Of a stretch of 64,000 nucleotides of DNA, positions 15,194 to 30,918 are shown piece after piece. The stretch is from NCBI GenBank assembly GCA_051599415.1, contig AP039694.1:1-64000 (forward strand), given 5' to 3'. The position numbers were made by a program, and so were the translations under genes. Position 1 is the stretch's first letter. Each line of letters opens with the position of its first letter. This stretch comes from Savitreella phatthalungensis. Its lineage: Eukaryota. Below the pieces are notes generated by a model. That model worked only from the letters and a program-made list of their open reading frames with translations. It searched no databases and was not told the origin of the DNA.

Positions 15194-18100
15194 TCAGGCA
15201 AACGCTGTCCTGAGCGAGATTTGCGGTGCAGAGTCCTTGTCACCCGCTTGTTTGCCTTGCAAACGCAATATGAAGCTTTGCAGCATTGCACGCTGCTCAA
15301 GCGGCATTTGGGACACATACATCTTGAACGAGACCGGCTCGTCCCGAACATGGTCGAGAAGTCGACTTAGGAGATTGATCGTGATGAGGGTGTTTTCATT
15401 TGCTTCATGACTTTCGATCTTGAGTTCGTTCACCTCGTTCGCCTGCACAAAGAGCAGCACAAGCGGGATCAACGCTGGAAGATCGGCCGTCTCGAGCAGA
15501 TCAAATAGTAGCGAAAGGAGCGCACCACCTGCCCGAGGGTCATCGAGTACATGCCGCGTCAATTCCGTGAGGATGAGCCTTGCCACGATTGGGTGGGCTG
15601 CATAAGTAGTCTTGCATGCCCACTCAGCCGACCTTCTTGATGCAGCGTTGCTGAGAGCACGCACCACAAAGGTGGCGTGCTTCGCGAAAAGCTTGTCTTG
15701 TGGCTGTAAAGCTCCAACAAGCGCGTTGGCTAAGATTGTGCTTGCTAGCACACGATTATTGACTGTCTCATCCTCCTGAGCAGTCACAAGCTTGCGCAAG
15801 ATGTAACGCGCCGGGCCCACAAGCATTCCTGCATCTACTTCGCCATTCTGACCATGCTCGTGCAACGTGGCAGAAACCTTAGCGCAGAATGCTCGAAATG
15901 GTGGGAGGATGGCAGGGACGACCGTCGCCTGTGTCTGAAGGGCCTGGAAGACGTTGCCGAAAACGTGAAACATCGCATTGTAAAGATCGAGGCGTATGAT
16001 GGGAGGGAATCGCTCAGTCAAGTCGACGAAATGAGCTAAGCATGTCCGAGCGAGCTTCGGAAGCGATGCGTCGATTTGTGTGACCTCCTTGCCCTGCTCG
16101 GATTGGTCCCAAGAGAAGACAATGGTGAGAGGTAAGATCGTCAGTCTTGCGAGGTCAAACATTTGGTCCACGAAGCCTTGCTCTAAGTTACTGGACGTAT
16201 TTGGATGACTGAGCCCTAGCATGTGGATTGTGTCGACTAGCAATAGCTGTGACGGAACTCCCTCTGTGAGTAAGAGTCTTCCGAAAAGATCGGTCAGCTC
16301 AGTAAAGATAGGCTCAGAAAAGACAACATCACCGCAAACGGACGGAGACAGAATTGACCTGAGGGCTTGCAGCGTCGCGTAATTGCCTCGTCCCTCCAGC
16401 GATGCGTGTGCGAGTGACTCATAGCAGATGCCGAAAAGGACCATGAAGAACGCTGCTGGCTCACCTCTGTAGTCGATATCGTCGCTAGACTTCTCTCCAA
16501 GCACGTTGAAGACAAAGGCTCTATCAATGTCCAGCAGAGTGGCTACAGCGTGGACTATGTTGAGCCATGCGCGATCGTAGAATGTCAATGTAGTCTCGCG
16601 TGAAACAGAAGTGAAGAGGTCCGATGTCGGCTCAAACTTGAGGCGAGCATAATCCTTCAGTGCATCGAGCCACAAAGGTAGCAAGTGGTGAAGTCTCTCA
16701 CTGAGGATGGGTCTCAAATAATCCTGCTCGATAGACATGACTTGCAGTCGCGCCCAGGCGGCCAAGGCGGCAGTTCTGAGCATGCCGTGATAGGCAGCCT
16801 CGTCGAGCGATCCGCTGAGCATTCTGACCACGCGCGACATACGTTCCACATCTCGCACGATGCCGGAAGAGATGAACACTGCGCAAACATGAATAGCCGA
16901 AGCCGTCACAGCTGGTGGCGCATCGGCACCAAAGGCCGGTGTCAGTGCTGATGCGAGCTGTGCTTGATACTGTTCGAGCAGGGGTTGCTCGGGGAATTCT
17001 GGGTCTGCTGCCGTTTTCAGTCGCTCGATTAGCAGATTTAGAAGCGTGAGGCCTTCAATCCTCAAGCCCTCGACTGGAGACGTAGCCGCTGTAAAGGCTA
17101 TTCGCACCAGGTCTGCTACCCGGTTAGCTAAGTGTTCCATTGCAAGGACGCTAATCAGCTTCGCCAAACTTTTGATCGCAAATTTACACGTCTGCCAGCG
17201 CAGAACTGCATCCCTGGCTTCTTGTCTAGCTTGCTCGAGACTTGCGCCTTCGTCCTCTGCTGCTCTCGTCTCGGTCGAAAGCTCTCGAGCGGCGGAAGCG
17301 GATCGATCAACCTCGGTTAGCCTCTGACGGATAATGATCTGGCCAAATAAGTCCACCCAGTAGTTGTACTCATGTTGCGTTTGCAAAAGCCACGCTAAGA
17401 TAATGTCTTTGACCGTGTCGCACGAAGGGTCTGCGTTGAGCAAGGTCCAGATCGCGGTATCGAATCGTGATGATATACTCGAGTGTTGAATGACCTGGTT
17501 GGCATCAACCCGCACGAGTTGGTAGAGGCCGTCCACTGTCGCATTCCGGATTGCATCATCATGGCTCTTGAGGTAGAAGTGTAGCGAGAGAATATAGCTC
17601 GTCATGTCGATCTTGCGCGGAGCGAACAGGGCAAGATGTTGGGAACAACGGAGTCCTACAGCGACCAGCGATGGGTCCTGGAGGACTTCGCCTACGAGCT
17701 TGACCAAGAGATCTCTAGATGTTGCACTGTCTTCTAGGTCTGGTCCTAGCAGATTGATGAGGCCATCAGCACACTCTGCTAATACGGACGTCGCGTCGTT
17801 GTCAAAGGCCAAGTTGGAGGTAGCCGTAGAGCCTGCCGTCTCGTCAAGCAGATCGGACGTGTAAAGTCGCAAGAGCAAAGCAAGCGTGCTGCTGGTGTGC
17901 TGAGCGAAATTGAGCCCGGACGAGCTGATCGTGCGCGCTAGTGCCTGTAGCGCGCAGAGGTGCACAGTCGGATGAGGGTCAGCGGCAAGGCTCACAAGGA
18001 CATTCAAGATACGCTTGAGATGATATCTCGCGGCAATGCCGCCGAGAGCGGCGTGTATGTGCCCAAGAGCTATTGTGCAACCCGCGCGGGTGTTTGGATC

Positions 18101-20350
18101 CCGGTCATTCACAATTCGATCCACAAGTTCGTCCACCTGTGCAGAAGCATGCGCGCTACCCTTGGTGGACACAGCTTTGCCCAGAGCCGCACCAGCGAGA
18201 TTGCGCAAATCGGAGTCACTCGAACTCATGGCTTCCTTGAAACTCTCAGTCTCAAATCCCAACACCAAATTCGTCAGCAGGGCTTGTTTACGTGCTGCCG
18301 TAGCCTTGGACAGGAACTGCTGAGCTTGCGCCAGTAGCGATGCCTGAACCTGGGGAGACTGCTTCGGATACAGCATGCGGAACAGCTGGATACCGAGGTC
18401 GATACATTGCGTTGAGCTGGATGGCGACGCCTCGATTTCTTGAAGGACGGCCAAGTAATCGTGCTCGAGGGCTGGCAGGATTGCGTTCGAGTTCAGTACC
18501 TCTAATGACAGCCCCTGTGCAGCGAGGGACGAGAGACCCGATCGATAGTTGTCTGCAGCTGTAGCAATCGTAACCAGGGCCATCGGATCCTTCGATGGGG
18601 CAGGGTTGGCAAATGATGTGAGAGCGAGACTGATGCAGTCATCCATCGCGGTGGCACCGCCATTGACGTGACTGTTCAGCTCGAGCAGGCATTGCAATGT
18701 GCGCCGGCGTAAGTCATCCTTGCGGGTCTGGATACAGTTTCCGACAAGCGTTGCGACCCGTTTCGCCACGTCGGCAGTCAAGAGACTGCGACATTGTCGT
18801 AGGAAGCAATAGACCGATGTGAGTGCCCATTCTGATCCTTCGCCACCTCGTGGCAGGGCGTTTTTCCATAATAGCAGTAGCTGAGATAGATGCGAGCGAA
18901 CAAAGCTTGGTCCGAGCGACTGCAATGCGGCGATCAAGATCCAAGCCACATGCTCTCGCCCATCTACTTTCAAATTCGACGTTGCGAAGTCGAAAACCTG
19001 GGCTGCAATGCTGTCGAGCGAGACGTAGAGAGGGCGCCGGACAGATGCAGTCAACAGTGCGCCGAGAGCCAAAGACAGCCCGCACATTTCTTGCTCTTGA
19101 TCCGTCTCCTTGAGTTGTGTGAATACCGCAGCGATAAAGTTCGAAAGCAGAGATGGAACGTTGAGGCAAATTGTTTTGACAGCATGAGCTGCAGCGACAT
19201 GAACTGCGGCCGTGGGATGCGACACAACGAACATCAAAGCATCCATCTCGAAATTTTGTGGTGCCGCACAGCCCAGCATCTCAATGAGCGATGCGACCTC
19301 TTCAAGGCACGAGACCAAAATATATCGAGAAGGAGCTGTGCGCACGTGCAGAATCAGCCGCTTGATCGCCAATAACTGGTGCTCCTGGTCCAGTGCACGA
19401 TTAAAGCGTCGGAGAAGCAATTGAACATGAGCCCGAGCTCCAAGTGCTTTGAAAGGGTCCGTTTCTATCGAGCTCATCTGCAAATCGTTCACGAGGGAAA
19501 GCAAAAGCGTCTCCCAGTGTTGTGCGATCCAGGTGACGTCTGCCTGCATGAGCATCTCCTCATATGTGAGTGCTACAATTGTGCGCGTCCGGCGCGACGA
19601 AGATTTATTGTAAAGTGTAGATAGAAAGACAAATTCTCCGGAGAACCTGCGAATCTCTCTGGTAGCCAAGCACTTTGCTGCAGCCCGTCTGACGCGAGCG
19701 CTGTCCATGTGTTCGAGTGCTTTAATGACATGAGCAATGTCGAGGTCGGCGTGCCGGAGGATCGCCTCCAAGCAGAGGAGCGCGCTTGCGCAAACCGCAT
19801 TAGACTTGTCCGGCACGCATTGTCTGATCGCTCGATATACATCCCTTGCGATATTCTCATCGGGTTCGACTTGTTGCAAGCCCGCGGCCAGTGCTCTGAA
19901 ACCGTGACATCGAACTGCATTGGAAGTGCTCTTCGTGGCCTTGAGGCAGATTGCAGCAAGCTCTGGAAGGAGCGACAACATGTCTCGGCCGAAGGTCTCG
20001 AAGACATTGAGTAAAATCGAAAGCAGAGCCGTACGTATCTTCTCATCTTTCTCCTTTCCTAGCGTCTGCAGAAGCCTGCTTGTCGGCTCGAAAGGTCCTA
20101 CGGCCATGCGTCGAAAGACTACAAGATAACAACGGGAAAGAAGGGCTCTGTTAGCCTTATTCAAGCCAGTAGCGCGCGTTGCGGCACCGAGCTCATCCAG
20201 CAAGATTTGACTCGATGCCACGAGTATTGTGGCGTCAAGCAAGCAGAGATGACGGTGATGCGTCGACAAGGTGTTGAAGACATAGAGCGCATGCTTGTCT
20301 TGAGGTAGAGATGTGAGCTTCTGGAGGTCACTGGACAGCGAGGCCGCCAT
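15194..20350 (-). CDS. LAA1: Large HEAT-repeat AP-1 accessory protein (Laa1/Sip1/HEATR5)
   Basis: About 1720 aa of HEAT repeats with HLSQLLLLWKNALP, DRDPNTRAGC, DPHPTVH and DPEFPEQPLLEQYQAQLASALTPAF motifs. Confidence 0.92.
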   Translation of the reverse strand: MAASLSSDLQKLTSLPQDKHALYVFNTLSTHHRHLCLLDATILVASSQILLDELGAATRATGLNKANRALLSRCYLVVFRRMAVGPFEPTSRLLQTLGKEKDEKIRTALLSILLNVFETFGRDMLSLLPELAAICLKATKSTSNAVRCHGFRALAAGLQQVEPDENIARDVYRAIRQCVPDKSNAVCASALLCLEAILRHADLDIAHVIKALEHMDSARVRRAAAKCLATREIRRFSGEFVFLSTLYNKSSSRRTRTIVALTYEEMLMQADVTWIAQHWETLLLSLVNDLQMSSIETDPFKALGARAHVQLLLRRFNRALDQEHQLLAIKRLILHVRTAPSRYILVSCLEEVASLIEMLGCAAPQNFEMDALMFVVSHPTAAVHVAAAHAVKTICLNVPSLLSNFIAAVFTQLKETDQEQEMCGLSLALGALLTASVRRPLYVSLDSIAAQVFDFATSNLKVDGREHVAWILIAALQSLGPSFVRSHLSQLLLLWKNALPRGGEGSEWALTSVYCFLRQCRSLLTADVAKRVATLVGNCIQTRKDDLRRRTLQCLLELNSHVNGGATAMDDCISLALTSFANPAPSKDPMALVTIATAADNYRSGLSSLAAQGLSLEVLNSNAILPALEHDYLAVLQEIEASPSSSTQCIDLGIQLFRMLYPKQSPQVQASLLAQAQQFLSKATAARKQALLTNLVLGFETESFKEAMSSSDSDLRNLAGAALGKAVSTKGSAHASAQVDELVDRIVNDRDPNTRAGCTIALGHIHAALGGIAARYHLKRILNVLVSLAADPHPTVHLCALQALARTISSSGLNFAQHTSSTLALLLRLYTSDLLDETAGSTATSNLAFDNDATSVLAECADGLINLLGPDLEDSATSRDLLVKLVGEVLQDPSLVAVGLRCSQHLALFAPRKIDMTSYILSLHFYLKSHDDAIRNATVDGLYQLVRVDANQVIQHSSISSRFDTAIWTLLNADPSCDTVKDIILAWLLQTQHEYNYWVDLFGQIIIRQRLTEVDRSASAARELSTETRAAEDEGASLEQARQEARDAVLRWQTCKFAIKSLAKLISVLAMEHLANRVADLVRIAFTAATSPVEGLRIEGLTLLNLLIERLKTAADPEFPEQPLLEQYQAQLASALTPAFGADAPPAVTASAIHVCAVFISSGIVRDVERMSRVVRMLSGSLDEAAYHGMLRTAALAAWARLQVMSIEQDYLRPILSERLHHLLPLWLDALKDYARLKFEPTSDLFTSVSRETTLTFYDRAWLNIVHAVATLLDIDRAFVFNVLGEKSSDDIDYRGEPAAFFMVLFGICYESLAHASLEGRGNYATLQALRSILSPSVCGDVVFSEPIFTELTDLFGRLLLTEGVPSQLLLVDTIHMLGLSHPNTSSNLEQGFVDQMFDLARLTILPLTIVFSWDQSEQGKEVTQIDASLPKLARTCLAHFVDLTERFPPIIRLDLYNAMFHVFGNVFQALQTQATVVPAILPPFRAFCAKVSATLHEHGQNGEVDAGMLVGPARYILRKLVTAQEDETVNNRVLASTILANALVGALQPQDKLFAKHATFVVRALSNAASRRSAEWACKTTYAAHPIVARLILTELTRHVLDDPRAGGALLSLLFDLLETADLPALIPLVLLFVQANEVNELKIESHEANENTLITINLLSRLLDHVRDEPVSFKMYVSQMPLEQRAMLQSFILRLQGKQAGDKDSAPQISLRTAFA

Positions 20351-20671: not shown

Positions 20672-21259
20672 TTAATTGAAGCTACCAGTAGCACGCGGGG
20701 CAGCGTCACGCTTGAACTTGCCAGTCGCACGGGCCTCTGCTTCACGCTTGAACTTTCCTGTGACTCGCGGCTCGGCCTCACGCTTGAACTTGCCAGTCGC
20801 ACGGGCCTCTGCCTCACGCTTAAACTTTCCTGTGGCTCGCGGCTCGGCCTCGCGCTTGAACTTGCCAGTCGCACGAGCCTCTGCCTCACGCTTGAATTTG
20901 CCGGTGGCTCGCGGCTCGGCCTCACGCTTGAACTTTCCGGTGGCTCGCGGCTCGGCCTCACGCTTGAATTTGCCAGTAGCTCGAGGCTCAGCAATGCGCT
21001 TCTCGAATCCGGTCGCGCGTGCAGCATTGTAGTGCACCCGATCGATAGAAGCGGCGGCCACGAACTCGTTCACCCGTTCCAGCTCGGCGACACTGCTTTG
21101 CGCAGAAGCAGCGACAGCCGCTTCGTCGATATCGTTTTCCGTGAACCAGCGACGGAAATTGCGGAACACGCCGCGCTCCTCGAGATGCTGCTGAACTTCA
21201 GCCTGCGCCATGACGGCAGAGGCACCGAGCAGGAGTTGTAAAACGGCTGTGAGCTGCAT
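20672..21259 (-). CDS. Secreted Kex2-processed repeat peptide precursor (KEP-1; RATGKF repeats)
   Basis: Signal peptide MQLTAVLQLLLGASAVMA and a pro-region, then eight x-A-E-[P/A]-R[A/V]TGKF-KR units and a terminal DAAPRATGSFN. Confidence 0.88.
   Translation of the reverse strand: MQLTAVLQLLLGASAVMAQAEVQQHLEERGVFRNFRRWFTENDIDEAAVAASAQSSVAELERVNEFVAAASIDRVHYNAARATGFEKRIAEPRATGKFKREAEPRATGKFKREAEPRATGKFKREAEARATGKFKREAEPRATGKFKREAEARATGKFKREAEPRVTGKFKREAEARATGKFKRDAAPRATGSFN
20675..21030 (-). repeat. 36-bp coding tandem repeat (about 9 units) in KEP-1
   Basis: Units such as CGCTTGAACTTGCCAGTCGCACGGGCCTCTGCCTCA recur every 36 bp with mostly synonymous variation. Confidence 0.93.
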
Positions 21260-22958
21260 GGAACTTGTTTCTGTAAATGTTGTCCGAGTTGTCTCGTCTA
21301 GTGTTCGTGTCCTGTTCATGTCGCGGTACTCCTGCCATTTTGTAGTAGTCGAGCGTTTGCACGATCGTCATCGGCAACCCTCTAGAGAGCAAGATATCGA
21401 GGGCCGCTCGCATGCGAGGCCTGCGGCTCGACCCCGAAGATAGATTGCAGGGCGTCGGCTCACCACAAGCGACCTGGTGCTTGCGGGTCTAGGACGCTCG
21501 ATGGCTCCACTAGCAAAAGCGAAAGGAGTGCTGATCGTGCGCGACATGCAGAAGGACGCCTCTCGCATCATAATACTAATCATGCGTATTGGGCAACATC
21601 AGCTTCAATGTTTGACTCAATGGCGGTCGTGATGATTCACCATGCCCACAGATTTTCCACTCTGAACAATGCCATTACGGCTGCAGGATGACGGGCGGTC
21701 AAAGAGAGTGGAATCTATTCTGATAAGGTCCAAGACAAGCGTCGATCTGAGCAATGCTCGGGTCTTGGTCTCGACGATCGCAGTGCACGTACAAGGGGCT
21801 CACTGCATCTGGTTTCATTCTGGGGCAAATCTCACCATATCGAAAGGTCTTTCACTGTAATGATCTGCGCATTTCAGCGACAAGACCTTCCTGATTCTGA
21901 CAACTAGCAACGAAGCGCCAACTGTGCAAAGGCTCTCGACCCTACATAGAGCTACGCATTTTGCCAATCGGAAGCAGCGGACGGCACATTTTGTAGACTT
22001 CAACGATCTAATCTTCCATCTTTTCATATTCGCAAAAACGACGGCCGCGGCGATCATTTCGAAATAGACCAATCAGGCATCGTCAATCAACGACGCGTTC
22101 GATTGATCTCTCTGGGGCGGTTCATACATATGGTACGTATGTCGATCCTCCACATCGAAAATCTCGAAATCGCATCCCTTAGTGAAATCTGCCAAGTGAG
22201 GAAATTTAGAGAGCACGTTACTGCATATGTCTGCATATGTCAGAATGAGTGAAGAAATGGCGCGATTGATATTTATTAGCTCCGGCAGAAAGTTTCTATC
22301 ATGTCGGCTAGGCTTCAATGCTTTGGCTGATGTTGTGGCTAGAAATGTGGCGACTGACCAGGTGAGCTGTGGAGAATACATATGGATAGACAGGGTCTCA
22401 ATCAAGCCCAGCATGTGGCAGGTGGCACGAGTCATCGAAAGGCCTAATGATGGAAAGCTGATACAGGCATAGCTGTGGAGCATAGCCAAGAATATCGCAA
22501 TCAGTACTGTTAGACTTGGTGTGTCGTGCGTCTCCACAGATACCAACATAAGGGAAAATCGCCACGATAGCGCGCATGGCAGCGTCTCAACTAATTTGCA
22601 ATGTGAATATGCCCTTCATCGATAAAGGAACACGCAAATGATGTGAGCCACAGTGACTAGATCGATGCTCGAGGATTGCAAGCTGTTGATGGACTCGTTG
22701 ACTTAAATTAGATGAAGACACGAAGCGTCATTTGCAACAGCATCGAAATGGCAAGCAGCTCAAGCCACGCAATGTTGTCGACTTGCTTAGCCATGTGTCG
22801 ATCTCGCGAGCATCGTGTCCAAGGATTCATCGAGAGTATATGCAGTCGTGTGTAGAGACAGCTTCGTGATAGAGAAATCAACAATATTTGATAAGAATAC
22901 TAAAAGAGTGGCGTCTATGGGCAAAAAGAAGCAAGATGTGAAAGACACCTTTGTCCGC

Positions 22959-23633
22959 TCAAGGAAGAGCAGGACGTTCGAGCTGAGGCAACTTGAGGGA
23001 AGGCAGCTCAATCTTGGGGAGCGCCGTAGGAATCACCGAGACTGGCGTCGACTTGGCCGCCGAAGCAGAGGCAGACGCAGAAGAAGCGCTGGCACTAGCA
23101 GACGAAGCAGCCTGCTCGTCACGGCGTCCGATCTTCGGAAGGTGGAGGTCGGGGAGGGCGATCTTGGTAAGCGCGGTGGGGATCGAGATGAGGGTTGTCG
23201 ACTTGGCCGCCGAAGCAGAGGCAGACGCAGAAGAAGCGCTGGCACTGGCAGACGAGGCGGACTGCTCATCACGGCGTCCGATCTTGGGCAGCTTAAGGTC
23301 TGGCAGCTCAATCTTGGGAAGTGCCGTAGGAATCACCGAGACTGGCGTCGACTTGGCTGCCGAAGCAGAGGCAGACGCAGAAGAAGCGCTGGCACTGGCA
23401 GACGAGGCAGCCTGCTCGTCACGGCGTCCGATCTTCGGAAGGTGGAGGTCGGGGAGGGCGATCTTGGGAAGCGTGGTGGGGATCGAGATGAGGGCAGTCG
23501 ACTTGGCGGCTGATGCAGAGGCCGATGCGGAAGAAGCACTGGCACTGGCGGAGGAGGCGGACTGTGCCTCACGGCGGTCGATAGCTGTGGCCGAAGCAGC
23601 AACGACGAGGAGAGCTGCCTGTAGAAGCTGCAT
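22959..23633 (-). CDS. Secreted dibasic-processed repeat precursor (KEP-2; four ~50-aa Ser/Ala-rich and LP-pentamer units)
   Basis: Signal MQLLQAALLVVAASATA and DRR, then units DEQ..SSASASASSASASASAAKST...LPKI[A/E]LPDL[H/K]LPKIGRR. Confidence 0.85.
   Translation of the reverse strand: MQLLQAALLVVAASATAIDRREAQSASSASASASSASASASAAKSTALISIPTTLPKIALPDLHLPKIGRRDEQAASSASASASSASASASAAKSTPVSVIPTALPKIELPDLKLPKIGRRDEQSASSASASASSASASASAAKSTTLISIPTALTKIALPDLHLPKIGRRDEQAASSASASASSASASASAAKSTPVSVIPTALPKIELPSLKLPQLERPALP
22975..23575 (-). repeat. 150-bp coding tandem repeat, four copies in ABAB order
   Basis: ACGGCGTCCG anchor at 23121, 23271 and 23421 (150-bp period). Units 1/3 and 2/4 are more alike. Confidence 0.92.
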
Positions 23634-26600
23634 GATGAATGAGTATCGAGGAGTCTTGCAGAAGCTAGGAGTGGATCAATTGATTTGTTGTTGTTCGACC
23701 ATGGGCGACATGCTGGCTTTATGTGCGTCCTTCGCAGACCCGGCGCAGTGGCGGTCATGCAACGTCCTTCCCCGCCAGATCACACGCCTTCGCCGAGGAG
23801 CAGTTCTGCCGCATCCACAAGCTTGATGATGAAGCATCGATACGGTCATGCCGTATCTGCAACTGCCTACTGAGCGCTTTCTTCATGTCTCAATACTATG
23901 ATTCTCGAGACAACGGGACGGGCTGTTCCCGCTGCGGCATCCATGGAATGATGAAAACCTTCGAGACTTGCTCATACGAAATCAGCTAGAAATCTACTCG
24001 TCGTTGAGCATGATACGTTGAAGAACACACATGTGGGTCAATGTCAGATGTGCCTGAGATACAAAAGTTTCGGGTCGGGTCCTCTACGCATCGGTATTGG
24101 GCCATTTAATCTCATCGAGAAGACAAATTATCAGGATACTGGGAAGGAGGTGACAGCAGAAGACAGGCAGCATGCTACCGACGGTGCTGTAAAACATGTA
24201 CTTACAGCGTGGGAGGGGCCGCCGTGGGGCACGGGAAAAACCAGATCCGGCAAGAGGGGATCGGTTTCTTCTGCATCTTTCGAGTTACGAGCGGCTCCCA
24301 CTCGATCACGTACCACAGACTTTGTGCATGCACCATAAGCATAAGGCCAAATTCGGTGACGGAGAAATTCCGTGCTGATTTCCTGAAGGATTTGATCTGA
24401 CCGAGATCGAGGATCCTTGAATTCACAGAAACTGGGAAGTCGGAAGAACATTTGAAAGACGGCAATCTGGTGCGCCTTGACATATTGGATATTAAAATTC
24501 TTGCAACACGTCCGATATCATTTTGAGCCAGATAGCTCTACCCTCTCATGCTTAGATGGCTGACCCTGCCTCACGCGTGCATGAGAGGAAAGGTCGATGA
24601 GACAGCGTCGGAGGCGTTGAGCGGCAAGACCGCAGGAGCTTATCGGAGTGCAGTCAACATCAGAACGTGAACATGGTGTTAACCACTACTGAATTTTTGA
24701 AGGCCCGCGTGGATGAGACTGTCTGTGGCTGTCGAGGGCCGCCCAGTTCAGCTCAATGATGCAGGCTTGCTAACCGCAACACGTGATCTTGCGTCGTATC
24801 GAGCCCAATCTTTCGGACGTGCGCGCAATAAATGATGCATCGCAGAGCAAGTGGACAGAAACAGTCCCACATGCCCATTGGTATGTGCTCGGCGGTCCCA
24901 CATCAGGTGAAAGACAATTGTCGATTCATCTGATGGCTGACATATCGTAGCAAAGAGCTTCGGCGGCGAGGGCCGCTCGACTTGAAGACTACGATGGCTA
25001 ATGACAATTCGTTTTGCCAGCGCTAACGATCCATGTGCTGAGCTTCGAAAAGCGACTTGTAGATAAATGTGCAAATTGAGAATGGTTTGAGTTTCATGAC
25101 TTAGCTCAAAATATACTGACAACCTCAGAACCTTTCCCAAAAAAGATGTCCCGGGCGATCGATAAAACTGAAAGCGCGTCATAGGAAGTCAATCATGCAA
25201 GCGAAATATGTCCTCAGACTATCGAACTCTCCTCAAAAGGTCTTAAAGCTCTTTCATCATGAAAGCGTCGCGAACACTTTCCTCATGACATCTTTTTGTT
25301 TTTGGTACACTAATAATATACTAGGCTTTCCTTCATTGGGAAACCAAGATCATTCACAGCGGTCATTGCTGGTAGTCGATGTTTCGCGTCTTGTCGCAAC
25401 ACTCCGTATATATCACGATTGTGGGTGTGCCGAATGCACAGAAAGGTAGCATGAACCGATGCTTTGGAGGATGGTGGCAATTGAGAAGGAGCACATGTCT
25501 CAAATCATGTAATGGTGCTCCTCCGTGCACAAGAACATCGATGTGCTTTATGCTTGCCTGCTGCAATGCGCAGTTGTTGTCATGGCACTTCTATGAAGGC
25601 GTTCTACGAGGTCGATATGGACAGTCAACCAGAACCCTCATGGTCGCGGCCATATGTCATTGTGCACGTGATGGACATCGGGAAATGTCCCATTCAGATA
25701 TTGAGATGGAAAAGACGCATGCATGGATTTGCAGCATAGGCGAAGATCGGCGAATTTGAAGAAAAAAATAACTGACGTGATGTGGCGGATTGGTTCCGCC
25801 TTCAAAATGCTCCATATTCGAATTGAACAGGCAAACCCGCCGGTGACAAGCTGAGTGTCAGCCGGCGTCATCATCATGCAGCATCCATTGTTTCCATATA
25901 ATGACCATTGCGCGTGATCATCTTCTTCAATACCGCGTTCCGGTCGGATTTCCCTCAAGATTGCAGGACCCTTTGCTTCGCTAAGCACATGACTGACATA
26001 GTTGCCGCGCACGATCAACAGAGGCAATGTCTTCGCGGACGGTAGCGTACACATGATATTGACATTACGCTATCTAGACAAGGTTGCGAATCCGGAGGTT
26101 GCGGAGCTATCCTTGAATCGATCATATGATCCAATACTTGATCCAAGACAACATTCTTGAGTTCGGAAGTGCGGCTGTGACTGGGATGACGCGGATGCAC
26201 GTCCAATCTCAGTTACAGCGTCCGTTCTGATCAGATTAAAGTACGATTAGGGCTTCGATCTGACTGGAGGTAGAGCAGGAAATGCAAAAGATCTCTCTCG
26301 GATCACAATAAGTTTGACTAATGTTGCTCATTTCCTCGCCAGAGAGTTTTAGGTTCGGGTTGACATGGCTTCCGTGCACCACAAATTGTTTTGTGGCGAT
26401 TTGGGGTAGCTGGCCTCTGTGTAACCATAGACATTGTTTTCGCAGGCGGCCGCGAGTTGACGCTAAGTCTTCAGACGGCTCCCGCGGGATCCGCGTTCTT
26501 CACACCTTATTGGTCCGGGTACAGTTTCCGAAAGTCCGATGTATTCGCAAGGCGGACTCTCGCACAGGTCAGAATTTTCTCACAGAAACGGGCTTCATTA

Positions 26601-27039
26601 GAGTGGTTTAAGCAGGTGCAGGCTTATTTAATTTCTCAATGTTCAATTATACAAATCGAAGCTCATCCGCCGAGAAATACAATGCACAAAGGCGAAATCT
26701 GAACCAATCTGGGCAGTGGTTGCGAATCGACCCCACAGATCGTTGTAGGTATGAGACCTGACAACCACCTCTGTGAGATTTGACGGCTGCGATTGACCCG
26801 GTTCTCATAGGGGCTATTTTATGTCGATCATCCGTGGACATGGTTGACTCCGGGGTCGTCGAATCCGGGGAGAGGTAATAGCAGCAACCGGCCATTGGCT
26901 CGTGAGCTCGGAACTTTCCGAGCAAGCCGTCAAGGGGCGCGGTTGACAGACACCAAAGCCAACAGAAGAGTGAACACTATAAGTGGATCGAGGATGCCAT
27001 GTTCCTAAAATCAGCTCTTCTCCTATTAAGCTATTCAAC

Positions 27040-28938
27040 ATGCTGTTCTCTGCGGCAGCACTGCTGACGGCCGTAGCGTTCGCTGCGCCTGTTGTCAACG
27101 ACATCGGATCTTTCGAATTCATTGTCGTTGGTTCTGGTGCCGGCGGTGGTCCGTTGGCCAGTAGACTAGCGCAAGCAGGTCGCAAGACGCTTCTGATAGA
27201 AGCGGGCGACGATCAGACCGGTAACGTCAACGTCACCGTGCCAGCCTTTCAGGCAGCCGTGACAGAAGACCCTCAGATAGCCTGGGACTTCTTCGTCAAC
27301 CACTACAAGAACTTTGATCAGGCAAAGCGAGACAGCAAGTATGTTTATGGTCTTCCCAATGGCGGGCAGTACGTCGGACTGAATCCACCGGCAGGAGCAA
27401 AGCCGAAAGGCATCTTCTATCCTCGTGCTGGCACTCTTGGCGGATGTGCGACGCACAATGCCCTGATTACAGTCTACCCACACGAGAGCGACTGGAACTA
27501 CATTGCACAGCTGACCGGAGATGACTCGTGGTCCGCGGCGAACATGCGGAAATACTTTGTGAAGCTGGAGCGGAATCAATACTTGCCCAACAGTGTCATC
27601 GGCCACGGATTCTCAGGCTGGCTTCGGACAGCCCAGGCTGATGTCGCTATCGTGCTGAAAGATTCAAAGGTTGTGCGTTGGCTGGTCGCTGCAGCTGCTG
27701 TGGCTGGCAACACTATTCCTGGCATCGATTACATTGCTGGTCTAACGCAGCTTGCTGCTCGCGATGTCAACGCGTATCTACCAGGCCGTGACTCGACAGG
27801 TGGCTACTACCAGATCCCTCTGCACATGGAGCAATCGACGGCATCACGTTCTGGTCCTCTTCAGCTGATCCGTGACACAGTTGCACAAGGCTACCCGCTC
27901 ACCGTACGGACCAATTGCCACGTCACTAAAGTAGTGTTTGACTCGAACAAGACTGCCACCGGCGTTGAGTTCCTTGATGGCGCGCATCTTTACCGGGCCT
28001 CACCTCTGTCTGGAGGCAGTGGTACCCCGGGCAGGGCCACAGCCTCGAAGGAAATTATTCTCTCTGGTGGCGCTTACAACACGCCACAGATTCTCAAGCT
28101 CTCAGGCGTCGGCCCAGCAGCCGAGCTTCAGCAATTTGGCATTGACGTCGTAAAGGATGCGCCCGCTGTCGGCACCAACCTTCAGGATCGTTACGAGATT
28201 GGCACCGTCTACAACACAACAGGATCGCAATACACTTTACTACAGGGCTGCACATTCGACGGCAGTGCGAATGACAAGTGTATCGGCCCGTGGCGCAACA
28301 ATCCGAATGTGCTCGGCGGCAAAGGCGCCTACGCTACGGACGGTCTCGCAGCTGCGATCCTCTCACGCTCGACTAACGCGGACGACTCCAACATTGACAG
28401 CTTCCTTTTCGGTGGGCCAGTCCAGTTTCTTGGCTACCAACCTAATTGGTCTCGCATCGCTGTTGATGACAAGCGTTCCTGGACATGGGCTGCGCTCAAG
28501 GCTCACACGCGCAACACGGCTGGCACAGTCACTCTGAGGTCATCCGATCCACTCGATGTGCCGGAAGTCAACTTCAACTACTTCTCCGAAGGCAGCGCGG
28601 GCTGGGAGAAGGACCTGGCCGCCATGGTTCAGATGGTCACGCAGGCCCGCGAGATCGGAGCGCAGATCACTGACTTCACCGAACAACACCCAGGATCTGT
28701 GGACGCGGCGCAATGGATTCAGGACGAGGCATGGGGCCACCACGCGTCCTGCACAGCGCCCATCGGTGCTGACAATGACCCTAATGCAGTCCTGGACTCT
28801 GGCTTCCGTGTTCGTGGCGTCAACCAGCTGTCGGTCGTCGATGCATCGGTATTCCCGAAGATTCCCGGTATTTTCATCGTCACTCCGATCTATATGATCT
28901 CTGAAAAGGCTGCCGATGTCATCTTGGCCAGAAACTAA
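27040..28938 (+). CDS. Secreted GMC (glucose-methanol-choline) FAD oxidoreductase, AA3-like
   Basis: Signal peptide MLFSAAALLTAVAFA; FAD motif IVVGSGAGGG; YPRAGTLGGC; GAYNTPQILKLSGVG; VGTNLQD; WGHHASCT; VVDASVFP...MISEKAAD. Confidence 0.93.
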   Translation: MLFSAAALLTAVAFAAPVVNDIGSFEFIVVGSGAGGGPLASRLAQAGRKTLLIEAGDDQTGNVNVTVPAFQAAVTEDPQIAWDFFVNHYKNFDQAKRDSKYVYGLPNGGQYVGLNPPAGAKPKGIFYPRAGTLGGCATHNALITVYPHESDWNYIAQLTGDDSWSAANMRKYFVKLERNQYLPNSVIGHGFSGWLRTAQADVAIVLKDSKVVRWLVAAAAVAGNTIPGIDYIAGLTQLAARDVNAYLPGRDSTGGYYQIPLHMEQSTASRSGPLQLIRDTVAQGYPLTVRTNCHVTKVVFDSNKTATGVEFLDGAHLYRASPLSGGSGTPGRATASKEIILSGGAYNTPQILKLSGVGPAAELQQFGIDVVKDAPAVGTNLQDRYEIGTVYNTTGSQYTLLQGCTFDGSANDKCIGPWRNNPNVLGGKGAYATDGLAAAILSRSTNADDSNIDSFLFGGPVQFLGYQPNWSRIAVDDKRSWTWAALKAHTRNTAGTVTLRSSDPLDVPEVNFNYFSEGSAGWEKDLAAMVQMVTQAREIGAQITDFTEQHPGSVDAAQWIQDEAWGHHASCTAPIGADNDPNAVLDSGFRVRGVNQLSVVDASVFPKIPGIFIVTPIYMISEKAADVILARN

Positions 28939-29034: not shown

Positions 29035-30918
29035 CTAGTCGACCTTGATACTCGCATAGATAGTGCGTACGAAGATGAAGCTCGCGAAAAAGCCGACAGT
29101 GCCTGTGACGAGGAACAAAGAGAACGCAATCAGTGCTGTGTAACCGAAATAGAGGATGACGCTCGACAATCCTGCAAGTCGGAGTTTCAAAACGTAGTAG
29201 ACGATGCTGTTGACAAGCACATAGATGGCGATTGATCCGCCACTCCAGATGGATCGCCACCACCAGCGGTGGTTCTCTGCACAAAGCTGGAGGTAGGTAG
29301 TGAGAATGGTCGTGAGCGCCGTACTGACAAGCAATATGCCATACGTTAGGAATAGGAATCCGAACATCCAGTAAATCCGGCCAAACCAAAGGGAGTTCAG
29401 CATGAAGAATAGTTCGACAAAGATGGCGCCGAACGGCATGATACCAGCCAAGAGGATTGTCGGAATGGCGCGTAGATAGACTGGTTGAGGCGGAATCTGC
29501 CTCGGAATCTGATTTGTCTTGACTGGATCAGCAGGCATGTTGACCTTGAATCCTATGAGACCACCAGCGACACTCAAGGGAAGTGAGACCAAGAACCAGA
29601 TCGCTACGATTGCGGCCATGGTTCCTAATGGGACGGCACCGGACGCGCCTTTTGAGATGAGCACAAAGTTGAGCAGCAAAGATGTCCCAAAGATGACCGA
29701 TGGTGCAAACATTGGTGTCAGGACGAGCAAGGTCTTGTAGCGCTCTGCTTTCCCTAGTGTCTTGTAGACGAGCGCCGCTGTGAATCCTCCAATGGTACCG
29801 TACAATGCGTAAAGGACAAGGGCTGCTGTAGCAAGGCTGCCGCGATTAGAAGGTGAAAGGAAACCAAGCGCTGCAAGAACAATCGTCGTGCCTACCATCA
29901 CAAGCAGCTGCACACCGTTGCCGAGAAGGATCGCAAGCATGAGAGAGCTATCAGGCTGACGGAAGACATCCGCGTGGACGAGCTTCCATCCTGCATCTTC
30001 GACGACACCATCCCGTTCAAGCTCAAGCGCGTTGTAATGCTTCACGTCGCGACGCAAAGTTCTCACCAGGACGGCAGCCACGGTCACTGTCAGGAAGATG
30101 ACGATGACAAAGCTCTCGGTGAGACTGAGCCAATGGATCTTCGGGTCATAAACATGCAAGTACCGATCCCAACGCGTTGCCCATGTGAGATCGGATTTGC
30201 GCCATCGCACAGAAAGCTTGAAGTCAAAAGTTGTCTTTTTACCATCCCGCTCGTCGAGCTTGATCGGCTTACCGGCAGCGCAATCTTTGGCGGAGGTCGA
30301 AGCGGGGACAACTTCAACACCGACAATACGATAGTCCTCGTCGTCGATCTTATGATAATCGATCGTGATCTCGTACAGGTTGTGATAGACCGGTTGACTA
30401 AACTGTTCGGTTGTGGCGCCGATATCGCCTAGGAGGAATCCAGGCATGTCGAACTCTGTTTGAGTGATGAGATCAGCCATTCGGCTGCCAGCTGGAAGAT
30501 TATCGATAAGCATCTCGACTAGATAATTATCTCGAATACGATCATTGATGATCTTGGCATCGATGTGGTCGACGGTCGTCGTGCAGATTGTGCGACAGGT
30601 CTCGTTCTTCAGGAATTCGAGCTCATACGCGGAAGACAGGATGCGATCGCCCATGAGCACGCTGCCTATGGACTCACTCTGCGCGACTGGTCCACCTTCC
30701 GGGATACAGAAATGGAAGGGCGGATAATAGTAGTCGTAGGAGATGACCTCATGAATCCTCGCATCATTGTCTGTTGTCCCGGGAGATAGAGCATTGACGT
30801 AGATTGGTACTCGCTGACCAATGCGGAATTCTGTCGGTGCGATACCAGGGATATAAAGTGCGGCGATCGACGAGGCAAACCACGTCACGCAGCTTACTGC
30901 GAGCAGTGATATATGCAT
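29035..30918 (-). CDS. EMP70: Transmembrane 9 superfamily protein (Emp70/TM9SF2-4)
   Basis: Signal peptide, then ESIGSVLMGDRI, IHWLSL, GWKLVHADVFR, PVKTNQIPRQIP and C-terminal IYASIKVD. Start at MHISLL. Confidence 0.93.
   Translation of the reverse strand: MHISLLAVSCVTWFASSIAALYIPGIAPTEFRIGQRVPIYVNALSPGTTDNDARIHEVISYDYYYPPFHFCIPEGGPVAQSESIGSVLMGDRILSSAYELEFLKNETCRTICTTTVDHIDAKIINDRIRDNYLVEMLIDNLPAGSRMADLITQTEFDMPGFLLGDIGATTEQFSQPVYHNLYEITIDYHKIDDEDYRIVGVEVVPASTSAKDCAAGKPIKLDERDGKKTTFDFKLSVRWRKSDLTWATRWDRYLHVYDPKIHWLSLTESFVIVIFLTVTVAAVLVRTLRRDVKHYNALELERDGVVEDAGWKLVHADVFRQPDSSLMLAILLGNGVQLLVMVGTTIVLAALGFLSPSNRGSLATAALVLYALYGTIGGFTAALVYKTLGKAERYKTLLVLTPMFAPSVIFGTSLLLNFVLISKGASGAVPLGTMAAIVAIWFLVSLPLSVAGGLIGFKVNMPADPVKTNQIPRQIPPQPVYLRAIPTILLAGIMPFGAIFVELFFMLNSLWFGRIYWMFGFLFLTYGILLVSTALTTILTTYLQLCAENHRWWWRSIWSGGSIAIYVLVNSIVYYVLKLRLAGLSSVILYFGYTALIAFSLFLVTGTVGFFASFIFVRTIYASIKVD

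Follow-up and report, generated by a model that had tools for sequence, protein, structure and literature searches.

A candidate alpha-factor-type Kex2-processed repeat protein gene near a chromosome end of a probable early-diverging ascomycete

The locus and its predicted precursor

On the minus strand of the window (the whole stretch of 64,000 nucleotides that was analysed), we located an open reading frame (ORF) for a protein that ends in a string of near-identical short units, all but the last closed by a Lys-Arg (KR) pair (Table 1). When the 205 ATG-initiated ORFs of at least 60 aa in the window were passed through a simplified screen for KEP-like features (KEP, Kex2-processed repeat protein), only two were retained, namely, this precursor and a 224-aa protein encoded by an unannotated gene next to it. 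The neighbouring protein begins with the predicted signal peptide MQLLQAALLVVAASATA, followed by IDRR and then by four units of about 50 aa that are separated by RR, each made of a Ser/Ala-rich stretch and IPTALPKIELPDLKLPKIG. Its variable columns are distributed as 12, 7 and 31 over codon positions 1, 2 and 3 (P=3e-5), with a pN/pS of 0.29, and it had no match at E<=0.001 in a word-indexed search of 5.8 billion clusters restricted to near-length candidates. We found no promoter repeats common to the two KEP-like genes.

Table 1. Features of the precursor gene and of its surroundings (positions in the window; strand "." where none applies)
Feature	Position	Strand	Remark
Precursor ORF	20672..21259	-	Stop codon included; product of 195 aa
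Start codon and predicted signal peptide, residues 1-20, MQLTAVLQLLLGASAVMAQA	21200..21259	-	Cleavage between AQA and E21, by inspection
Pro-region, residues 21-88, acidic, predicted helical	20996..21199	-	From composition and AlphaFold2 single-sequence model
Relic copy NAARATGFE-KR, residues 78-88	20996-21028	-	Forms the tail of the pro-region
Eight tandem 36-nt units, residues 89-184	20708..20995	-	Spacer X-A-X-[A/P], core and KR
Terminal copy DAAP-RATGSFN, residues 185-195, and stop	20672..20707	-	Stop codon at 20672-20674
Second unannotated KEP-like gene, 224 aa	22959..23633	-	1.7 kb upstream of the precursor gene, same strand
Telomere repeat (CCCTAA)n, about 36 copies	73..290	.	Inner end degenerate to CCCTGA/CCCTCA
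Laa1/HEATR5 gene	15194-20350		Downstream of the precursor gene
GMC oxidoreductase gene	begins 27040		Upstream of the precursor gene
EMP70 gene	29035-30918		

The telomere repeat places both KEP-like genes about 20-23 kb from the chromosome end. Outside this repeat, bases 1-72 are what we take to be untrimmed long-read sequencing adapter and barcode. Just inside it, short tandem repeats with periods of 12-35 nt (e.g. TCACCTGCAACTGCACCA) at 617-1283 have the look of subtelomeric satellites. A further 12-nt tandem repeat, CACTCACATGGG, is present in 9.4 copies at 7067-7179 within the ORF of a cation-efflux (CDF) transporter (5351-7657), where it presumably encodes a His-rich loop. The 5.7 kb from 21320 to 27040, which include the 224-aa KEP-like gene, hold no Pfam-recognisable ORF; the rest of the window is gene-dense and intron-poor.

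The predicted signal peptide of the precursor has its hydrophobic core at residues 3-17, with Kyte-Doolittle 9-residue means of 1.3-2.3 across residues 1-10, and by inspection the Ala-Gln-Ala at residues 18-20 ahead of E21 satisfies the -3/-1 Ala rule. Beyond the N-terminus, inspection of the sequence found no further hydrophobic stretch. Starting instead at an in-frame ATG at 21319 would lengthen the protein by 20 hydrophilic residues, to a long form of 215 residues. The computed pI and net charge are 4.77 and -5 for residues 20-77 and 10.35 and +14 for the mature part. In the AlphaFold2 single-sequence model, helices extend over residues 13-89, with mean pLDDT values of 73-89 for the 10-residue blocks at residues 21-70, and the repeat region is modelled at a pLDDT of about 50 with short helices only and no strands. 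A helical pro-peptide followed by a repeat string predicted to be disordered fits a peptide precursor.

The eight 12-aa units comprise one IAEP-RATGKFKR, three EAEP-RATGKFKR, three EAEA-RATGKFKR and one EAEP-RVTGKFKR. Tandem Repeats Finder reported the array both with a period of 36 nt (8.5 copies, 79% matches, score 358) and with a period of 72 nt (3.9 copies, 90% matches, score 428). With its higher agreement at the longer period, the array is a two-unit higher-order repeat, which grew via duplication of a pair consisting of one EAEP unit and one EAEA unit.

A sequence-only reading of the same DNA had described a signal peptide, an acidic pro-region, eight 12-aa units ending in KR and a terminal DAAPRATGSFN, with about nine peptide copies, two X-Ala/X-Pro dipeptides before each core and a cationic stretch (GVFRNFRRWF) in the pro-region. 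We could locate all of these elements in the 195-aa ORF. The cores amount to seven RATGKF, one RVTGKF and one RATGSFN; X-A-X-[A/P] follows each of the nine KR sites; and the cationic stretch occupies residues 30-39 and includes a dibasic RR pair at 36-37. The same reading had also listed a degenerate unit, NAARATGFEKR. This sequence is indeed present, but it forms the tail of the pro-region, and since no dibasic site precedes it, NAARATGFE would not be released as a peptide. The sequence-only reading had given no strand and had passed over both the KEP-like neighbour 1.7 kb away and the subtelomeric location.

Coding status and constraint on the repeat units

The eight units have eight distinct DNA sequences that encode only four peptides. 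Of their 14 variable nucleotide columns, 10 are third codon positions, and first and second positions account for 2 each (binomial P=0.004 for at least 10 of 14). Pooling the Nei-Gojobori counts from all 28 unit pairs gave pS and pN values of 0.645 and 0.019 for the core RATGKF (pN/pS 0.03), of 0.613 and 0.133 for the four spacer residues (pN/pS 0.22) and of 0.188 and 0 for KR (pN/pS 0); because the pairs are not independent, owing to tandem repetition, higher-order duplication and possibly concerted evolution, these ratios are descriptive and not the outcome of a formal test. Variation in the spacer stays within the X-Ala/X-Pro rule of Ste13-type dipeptidyl aminopeptidases: every unit has A at position 2 and either A or P at position 4, KR never changes, and it is the X positions that vary, with E or I at the first and with D and A in the terminal copy. 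Such a codon pattern would be expected of a reading frame that encodes peptides and in which the core and the cleavage site are under selection.

Parts of the gene (within nucleotides 20843-21286) were recovered at 95-99% identity in contigs of three sequencing runs, which are labelled as two other organisms and come from two other studies. The presence of these pieces in the three runs indicates that the gene is not an artefact of one assembly. Compared with the related DNA, the pro-region has four differences, of which V75 is synonymous and A47T, L26H and V22G are replacements; with three of the four being non-synonymous, the pro-region evolves quickly. Two runs of one study, which can be assigned to RNA by guess only, have contigs over 20843-21286 and 21082-21277 with empty flanks, a coverage that is uninformative on expression because a low-depth DNA run was equally patchy.

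These observations bear on whether the ORF is a gene at all or merely runs by chance across a non-coding minisatellite. Neither the exact protein nor its 215-residue long form nor the neighbouring 224-aa protein was present in a collection of 15 billion proteins that did include the product of the nearby EMP70 gene, so gene callers evidently skipped the precursor gene. None of the sequencing runs recorded as RNA contained it, and the repeat can also be read through without a stop in three other frames. Each of these points would suit a chance ORF. However, the third-position bias and the core pN/pS of 0.03 are found in exactly the precursor frame; none of the three other frames has this codon pattern or a signal-peptide start, and their translations had no Pfam match. 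Moreover, the precursor frame starts with an ATG and a canonical signal peptide, continues through a non-repetitive pro-region of 68 residues that is modelled as helical (block mean pLDDT 73-89 over residues 21-70), and meets a stop codon immediately after the last copy. We thus consider a chance ORF extremely improbable, and the sequence looks like a real gene under selection.

A second possibility is that the product is secreted as a very basic repeat protein and stays uncut, residing in the cell wall either intact or as large fragments, in the manner of a repellent or adhesin. The high positive charge of the mature part and the predicted disorder of the repeat region would agree with such a role, and the neighbouring gene with its 50-aa units looks more wall- or repellent-like. 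Nevertheless, constraint is strongest on KR and on the six core residues, and the spacers comply with Ste13 trimming, all of which would be needless in a structural repeat; nor did we see Ser/Thr-rich or GPI features in the precursor. A structural wall protein is thus very unlikely, and the pattern of constraint is consistent with the notion of a precursor that is cut into peptides.

Homology, host lineage and membership of the KEP class

For the precursor, Pfam returned only sub-threshold entries at E<=10 (RDM3_C, NUDIX-like, Vesi_VP2 and DUF5704), and the alpha-factor families MF_alpha_N (PF05436) and MF_alpha (PF04648) were unlisted even at this cut-off. These two models cover mainly Saccharomycotina, so their missing match leaves room for an analogous pheromone. 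The RDM3_C beta-solenoid (PF23348) was rejected, with a score of 19.1 bits against a gathering cut-off of 35 and a repeat region modelled as strandless. The word-indexed search of the 5.8 billion clusters, again among near-length candidates, gave no match to the precursor at E<=0.01. With HMMER, 71 matches at E<=0.001 were obtained among 1.84 billion representatives, their best stretches lying nearly all in the repeat half and five of them beginning at residues 26-64. All 19 of the matches that were inspected are unrelated repeat proteins, and a pattern scan found repeated TGKF or ATG[KS]F in none of the 71; one match rich in KR-X-A-X-A sites was dismissed as a non-secreted coiled-coil protein of AEAKR type. 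In a protein atlas, the best scores, 0.84 for the precursor and 0.81 for the 224-aa neighbour, were below the meaningful level. A metagenome scan with the back-translated RATGKFKR pattern, run with the Arg AGR codons left out, yielded 38 loci with one match each and none in tandem, which we treated as chance matches. With no homologue in the Pfam, cluster, HMMER and metagenome searches, the precursor is an orphan.

Neither RATGKF nor ATGKFKR, RATGKFKR or TGKFKR was found in a full-text literature search. The peptide strings were also not found in the supplements of the KEP surveys of Le Marquer 2019 and Umemura 2020, a blank that weighs little because the Umemura table gives accessions without sequences and the Le Marquer motif table lay outside the search.

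The nearby EMP70 gene was used to place the host. Among the 120 listed matches of its product, the named ones that were inspected are all ascomycetes at 47-51% identity, spread over Pezizomycotina, Lipomycetes-type yeasts and Saitoella, with 48-51% identity to all three subphyla; several further listed matches reach 55-61%. In a maximum-likelihood tree of 28 of these 120 matches, picked to span the groups and including no basidiomycete, the window's EMP70 protein and its three closest relatives, which are among the matches at 55-61%, formed a clade outside Saccharomycotina plus Pezizomycotina, where Saitoella also lies. The terminal branch of the window protein measured 1.12, compared to 0.17-0.29 for the three closest relatives, and could reflect either acceleration or read-through of an unrecognised intron. 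The subphylum is not settled by a single-gene tree that has this long branch and lacks a basidiomycete outgroup. The likeliest reading is that the host is a poorly sampled, early-diverging ascomycete of Taphrinomycotina grade.

We then compared the precursor with the operational definition of KEPs. The pipeline described in the text of Le Marquer 2019 (PMC6339444) calls for a signal peptide at the N-terminus (SignalP) in a protein that has no transmembrane segment (TMHMM), for in silico cleavage at KR or RR into 4 or more fragments of 2 aa or longer, with 3 or more of them similar, and for repeats that make up at least 15% of the protein. In the simplified screen, the precursor has nine KR sites and one RR site and gives nine similar fragments, and its eight units of 10-12 aa account for 41-49% of the 195 aa. 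In its fragments and its repeat content, the protein thus agrees with this definition, and by inspection it has a putative signal peptide and no other hydrophobic stretch. It resembles the KEPs of the two surveys (PMC6339444, PMC7329392) in its predicted signal peptide, in the apparent lack of a membrane span and in having at least three near-identical short KR-delimited units. Its repeats lie far above the 15% mark, and a Ste13 signature stands after each KR. Its orphan status is unremarkable for the class, since 2560 of the 7878 KEPs reported from 1461 genomes in the text of Umemura 2020 (PMC7329392) stand alone without homologues. RATGKF itself is unlike the conserved motifs that Le Marquer 2019 (PMC6339444) names in its text. 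The predicted precursor is a KEP of alpha-factor grammar that is both new and orphan.

Closer comparisons can be made with four known systems. With MFalpha1 of S. cerevisiae and map2 of S. pombe, the precursor shares a pre-pro architecture, many copies of KR followed by two X-A/X-P dipeptides and a peptide, a last copy without trailing KR, a fast-evolving pro-region and the lack of a DUF3328 neighbour. In contrast to both, its predicted peptide has 6 aa (4 if R-A is removed) instead of 9-24 aa, it has no match to Pfam MF_alpha or MF_alpha_N, and inspection found no N-glycosylation sequon in its pro-region. The basidiomycete KEPs with Ste13 motifs presented in Vogt 2022 (PMC9769878), with the products pyro-QYKAPS, QYKAPSW, QMRPPSW and SGVAADW, likewise combine short linear peptides, dibasic sites and X-A/X-P trimming. 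Those peptides, as given there, end in Trp or begin with Gln (as pyro-Glu), whereas RATGKF is cationic (R and K) with Phe at its end, and the phylum here is probably a different one. With the dikaritin/ustiloxin precursors (UstA, PhomA and the victorin precursor VicA), the common elements are a signal peptide, predicted in the present case, and many KR-delimited cores of 4-6 aa.

This last likeness raises the alternative that the gene encodes the precursor of a modified cyclic RiPP of the dikaritin/ustiloxin/victorin type, in which DUF3328 (UstYa) oxidases would cross-link the hexapeptide prior to release. The victorin core, which is also a hexapeptide containing K and F, counts in favour of this possibility. 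Furthermore, a DUF3328 gene was reported near 22% of KEPs in the survey text of Umemura 2020 (PMC7329392). No DUF3328/UstYa, tyrosinase, methyltransferase or similar RiPP enzyme matched, however, among 22 large ORFs from the whole window, 14 further ORFs and 105 intergenic ORFs of at least 60 aa, the small ORFs covering 7.7-39 kb, a scan from which exons under 60 codons could escape. Within the vicinity used for such genes (10 kb or 15 genes), DUF3328 was thus not encountered in the scanned ORFs, and none was seen within about 13-18 kb of the precursor gene, compared to an average distance of 3.09 genes in that survey (PMC7329392). The core contains Phe but lacks Tyr, through which, according to the same text (PMC7329392), DUF3328 proteins are considered to form the cross-link in the three solved ustiloxin-type compounds, and the X-A/X-P spacers, which set the precursor apart from the dikaritin type, are typical of linear pheromone-like KEPs. 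A cyclic RiPP is therefore highly improbable, and we retain linear, unmodified peptides as the expected products.

Candidate peptides and the mating-pheromone alternative

From the precursor sequence, we infer every processing step as well as secretion and function, as follows. The signal peptide would direct the precursor into the ER, and signal peptidase would cut after A20. In the late Golgi, a Kex2-type protease would cut after the nine KR pairs and possibly also after RR36-37. A Kex1-type carboxypeptidase would then remove the trailing K and R, and a Ste13-type dipeptidyl aminopeptidase the two X-Ala/X-Pro dipeptides, leaving seven copies of RATGKF, one of RVTGKF and one of RATGSFN as the secreted products. 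Because the R-A at the start of the core is one more X-Ala dipeptide, further trimming to TGKF could follow, and the RVTGKF copy would resist it; DPP-IV-type specificity makes both the removal of R-A and the resistance of R-V reasonable. The calculated average masses are 678.8 for RATGKF, 451.5 for TGKF and 1105.2 for the untrimmed EAEPRATGKF. The peptides would remain linear and unmodified and would serve as a diffusible extracellular signal, either in self or mate signalling or in interaction with other organisms. The Kex2/Kex1/Ste13 grammar that the sequence-only reading had recognised is complete in the sequence, and the substitutions between units obey it. Altogether, we consider it probable that the locus holds a lineage-specific KEP gene with alpha-factor-type architecture whose linear, unmodified peptides act as such a signal.

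At 6 aa for RATGKF, or 4 aa for TGKF, the products would be at the low end of the known sizes of bioactive fungal peptides. Peptides of this scale have precedents: Le Marquer 2019 (PMC6339444) describes a 3-8 aa size class and conserved cores on the scale of hexapeptides among KEPs, and Vogt 2022 (PMC9769878) includes 6-8 aa peptides from Ste13-motif KEPs that were detected by mass spectrometry in other fungi. The novelty that had been suggested for the peptide thus holds for the core, which matches nothing in the searches, and not for the kind, given these detected peptides and the many stand-alone KEPs of Umemura 2020. In other words, the predicted architecture is of a well-known kind, and the putative core peptide is new.

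More specifically, the gene could encode the precursor of an alpha/P-type mating pheromone, a peptide that would bind the Ste2/Mam2-type receptor in partners of the other mating type. By the EMP70 comparison, an ascomycete host is most likely, and the Ste13 signature, present here at all nine KR sites, is in Ascomycota "generally only dedicated" to alpha-type pheromones, in the wording of Le Marquer 2019 (PMC6339444); many ascomycete KEPs are likewise regarded as probable pheromone precursors in the text of Vogt 2022 (PMC9769878). The fast evolution of the pro-region is consistent with a pheromone precursor as well. Missing homologues would also be expected, since the pheromone precursor genes of Pneumocystis and Taphrina were undetectable or not assessable by homology in the account of Almeida 2015. 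In the protein atlas, the rank-2 neighbour of the precursor is an MF_alpha cluster, which at a score of only 0.83 is a lead and not evidence.

On the other hand, typical alpha-type pheromones contain Trp, Pro or a turn of the Gln-Pro type, and the core RATGKF has none of these. Ste13 trimming would leave 6 residues (10 aa only if Ste13 were inactive), compared to 9-14 aa for the known alpha-type pheromones considered in Billerbeck 2018 and 9-24 aa for those in the text of Le Marquer 2019 (PMC6339444). The precursor also lacks a match to the Pfam alpha-factor families, and the unrelated KEP-like gene next door shows that a KEP of this fungus is not necessarily a pheromone. A Ste12-type WGAAACA site lies 7 nt before the ATG (21266-21272), yet the window total of 17 such sites is at chance level (18.6 expected). 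Finally, the ascomycete phylum is unproven, the EMP70 tree having included no basidiomycete. Weighing these points, we regard a mating pheromone precursor as a rather unlikely, though serious, alternative. Although the precursor would work in an alpha-factor-like way, we do not file it as an alpha-factor precursor, since the sequence models do not recognise it and the predicted peptide after trimming is shorter than known alpha-type pheromones.

Our preferred reading is thus the broader one of a KEP gene for diffusible signal peptides. The sequence-only reading was right on architecture; as to function, the signalling, effector or host-mimic role that it put forward is one that we, too, can only infer. 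If the peptides are made, they would represent a new, very short and cationic peptide that is secreted by a fungus whose lineage has hardly any sequenced relatives. Taken by itself, the precursor is one orphan KEP among thousands, so its value hinges on the function of the peptide, and it would gain interest if the peptide were the mating pheromone of the lineage. As a doubtful but far-reaching suggestion, RATGKF or the overtrimmed TGKF would then be the alpha/P-type pheromone of an early-diverging ascomycete lineage, the shortest fungal peptide pheromone known, and its precursor, in a lineage of Taphrinomycotina grade other than the fission yeasts, the first to be recognised straight from the sequence, such genes having eluded homology searches there. 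In that case, the R-A and R-V copies would provide a built-in mix of trimmable and trim-resistant ligands. The locus also illustrates that raw sequence is enough to retrieve KEP genes that are subtelomeric and lack annotation, and the RATGKF gene offers a cheap and direct test of what an alpha-factor-like grammar stands for beyond the well-studied yeasts, be it pheromones or other signals.
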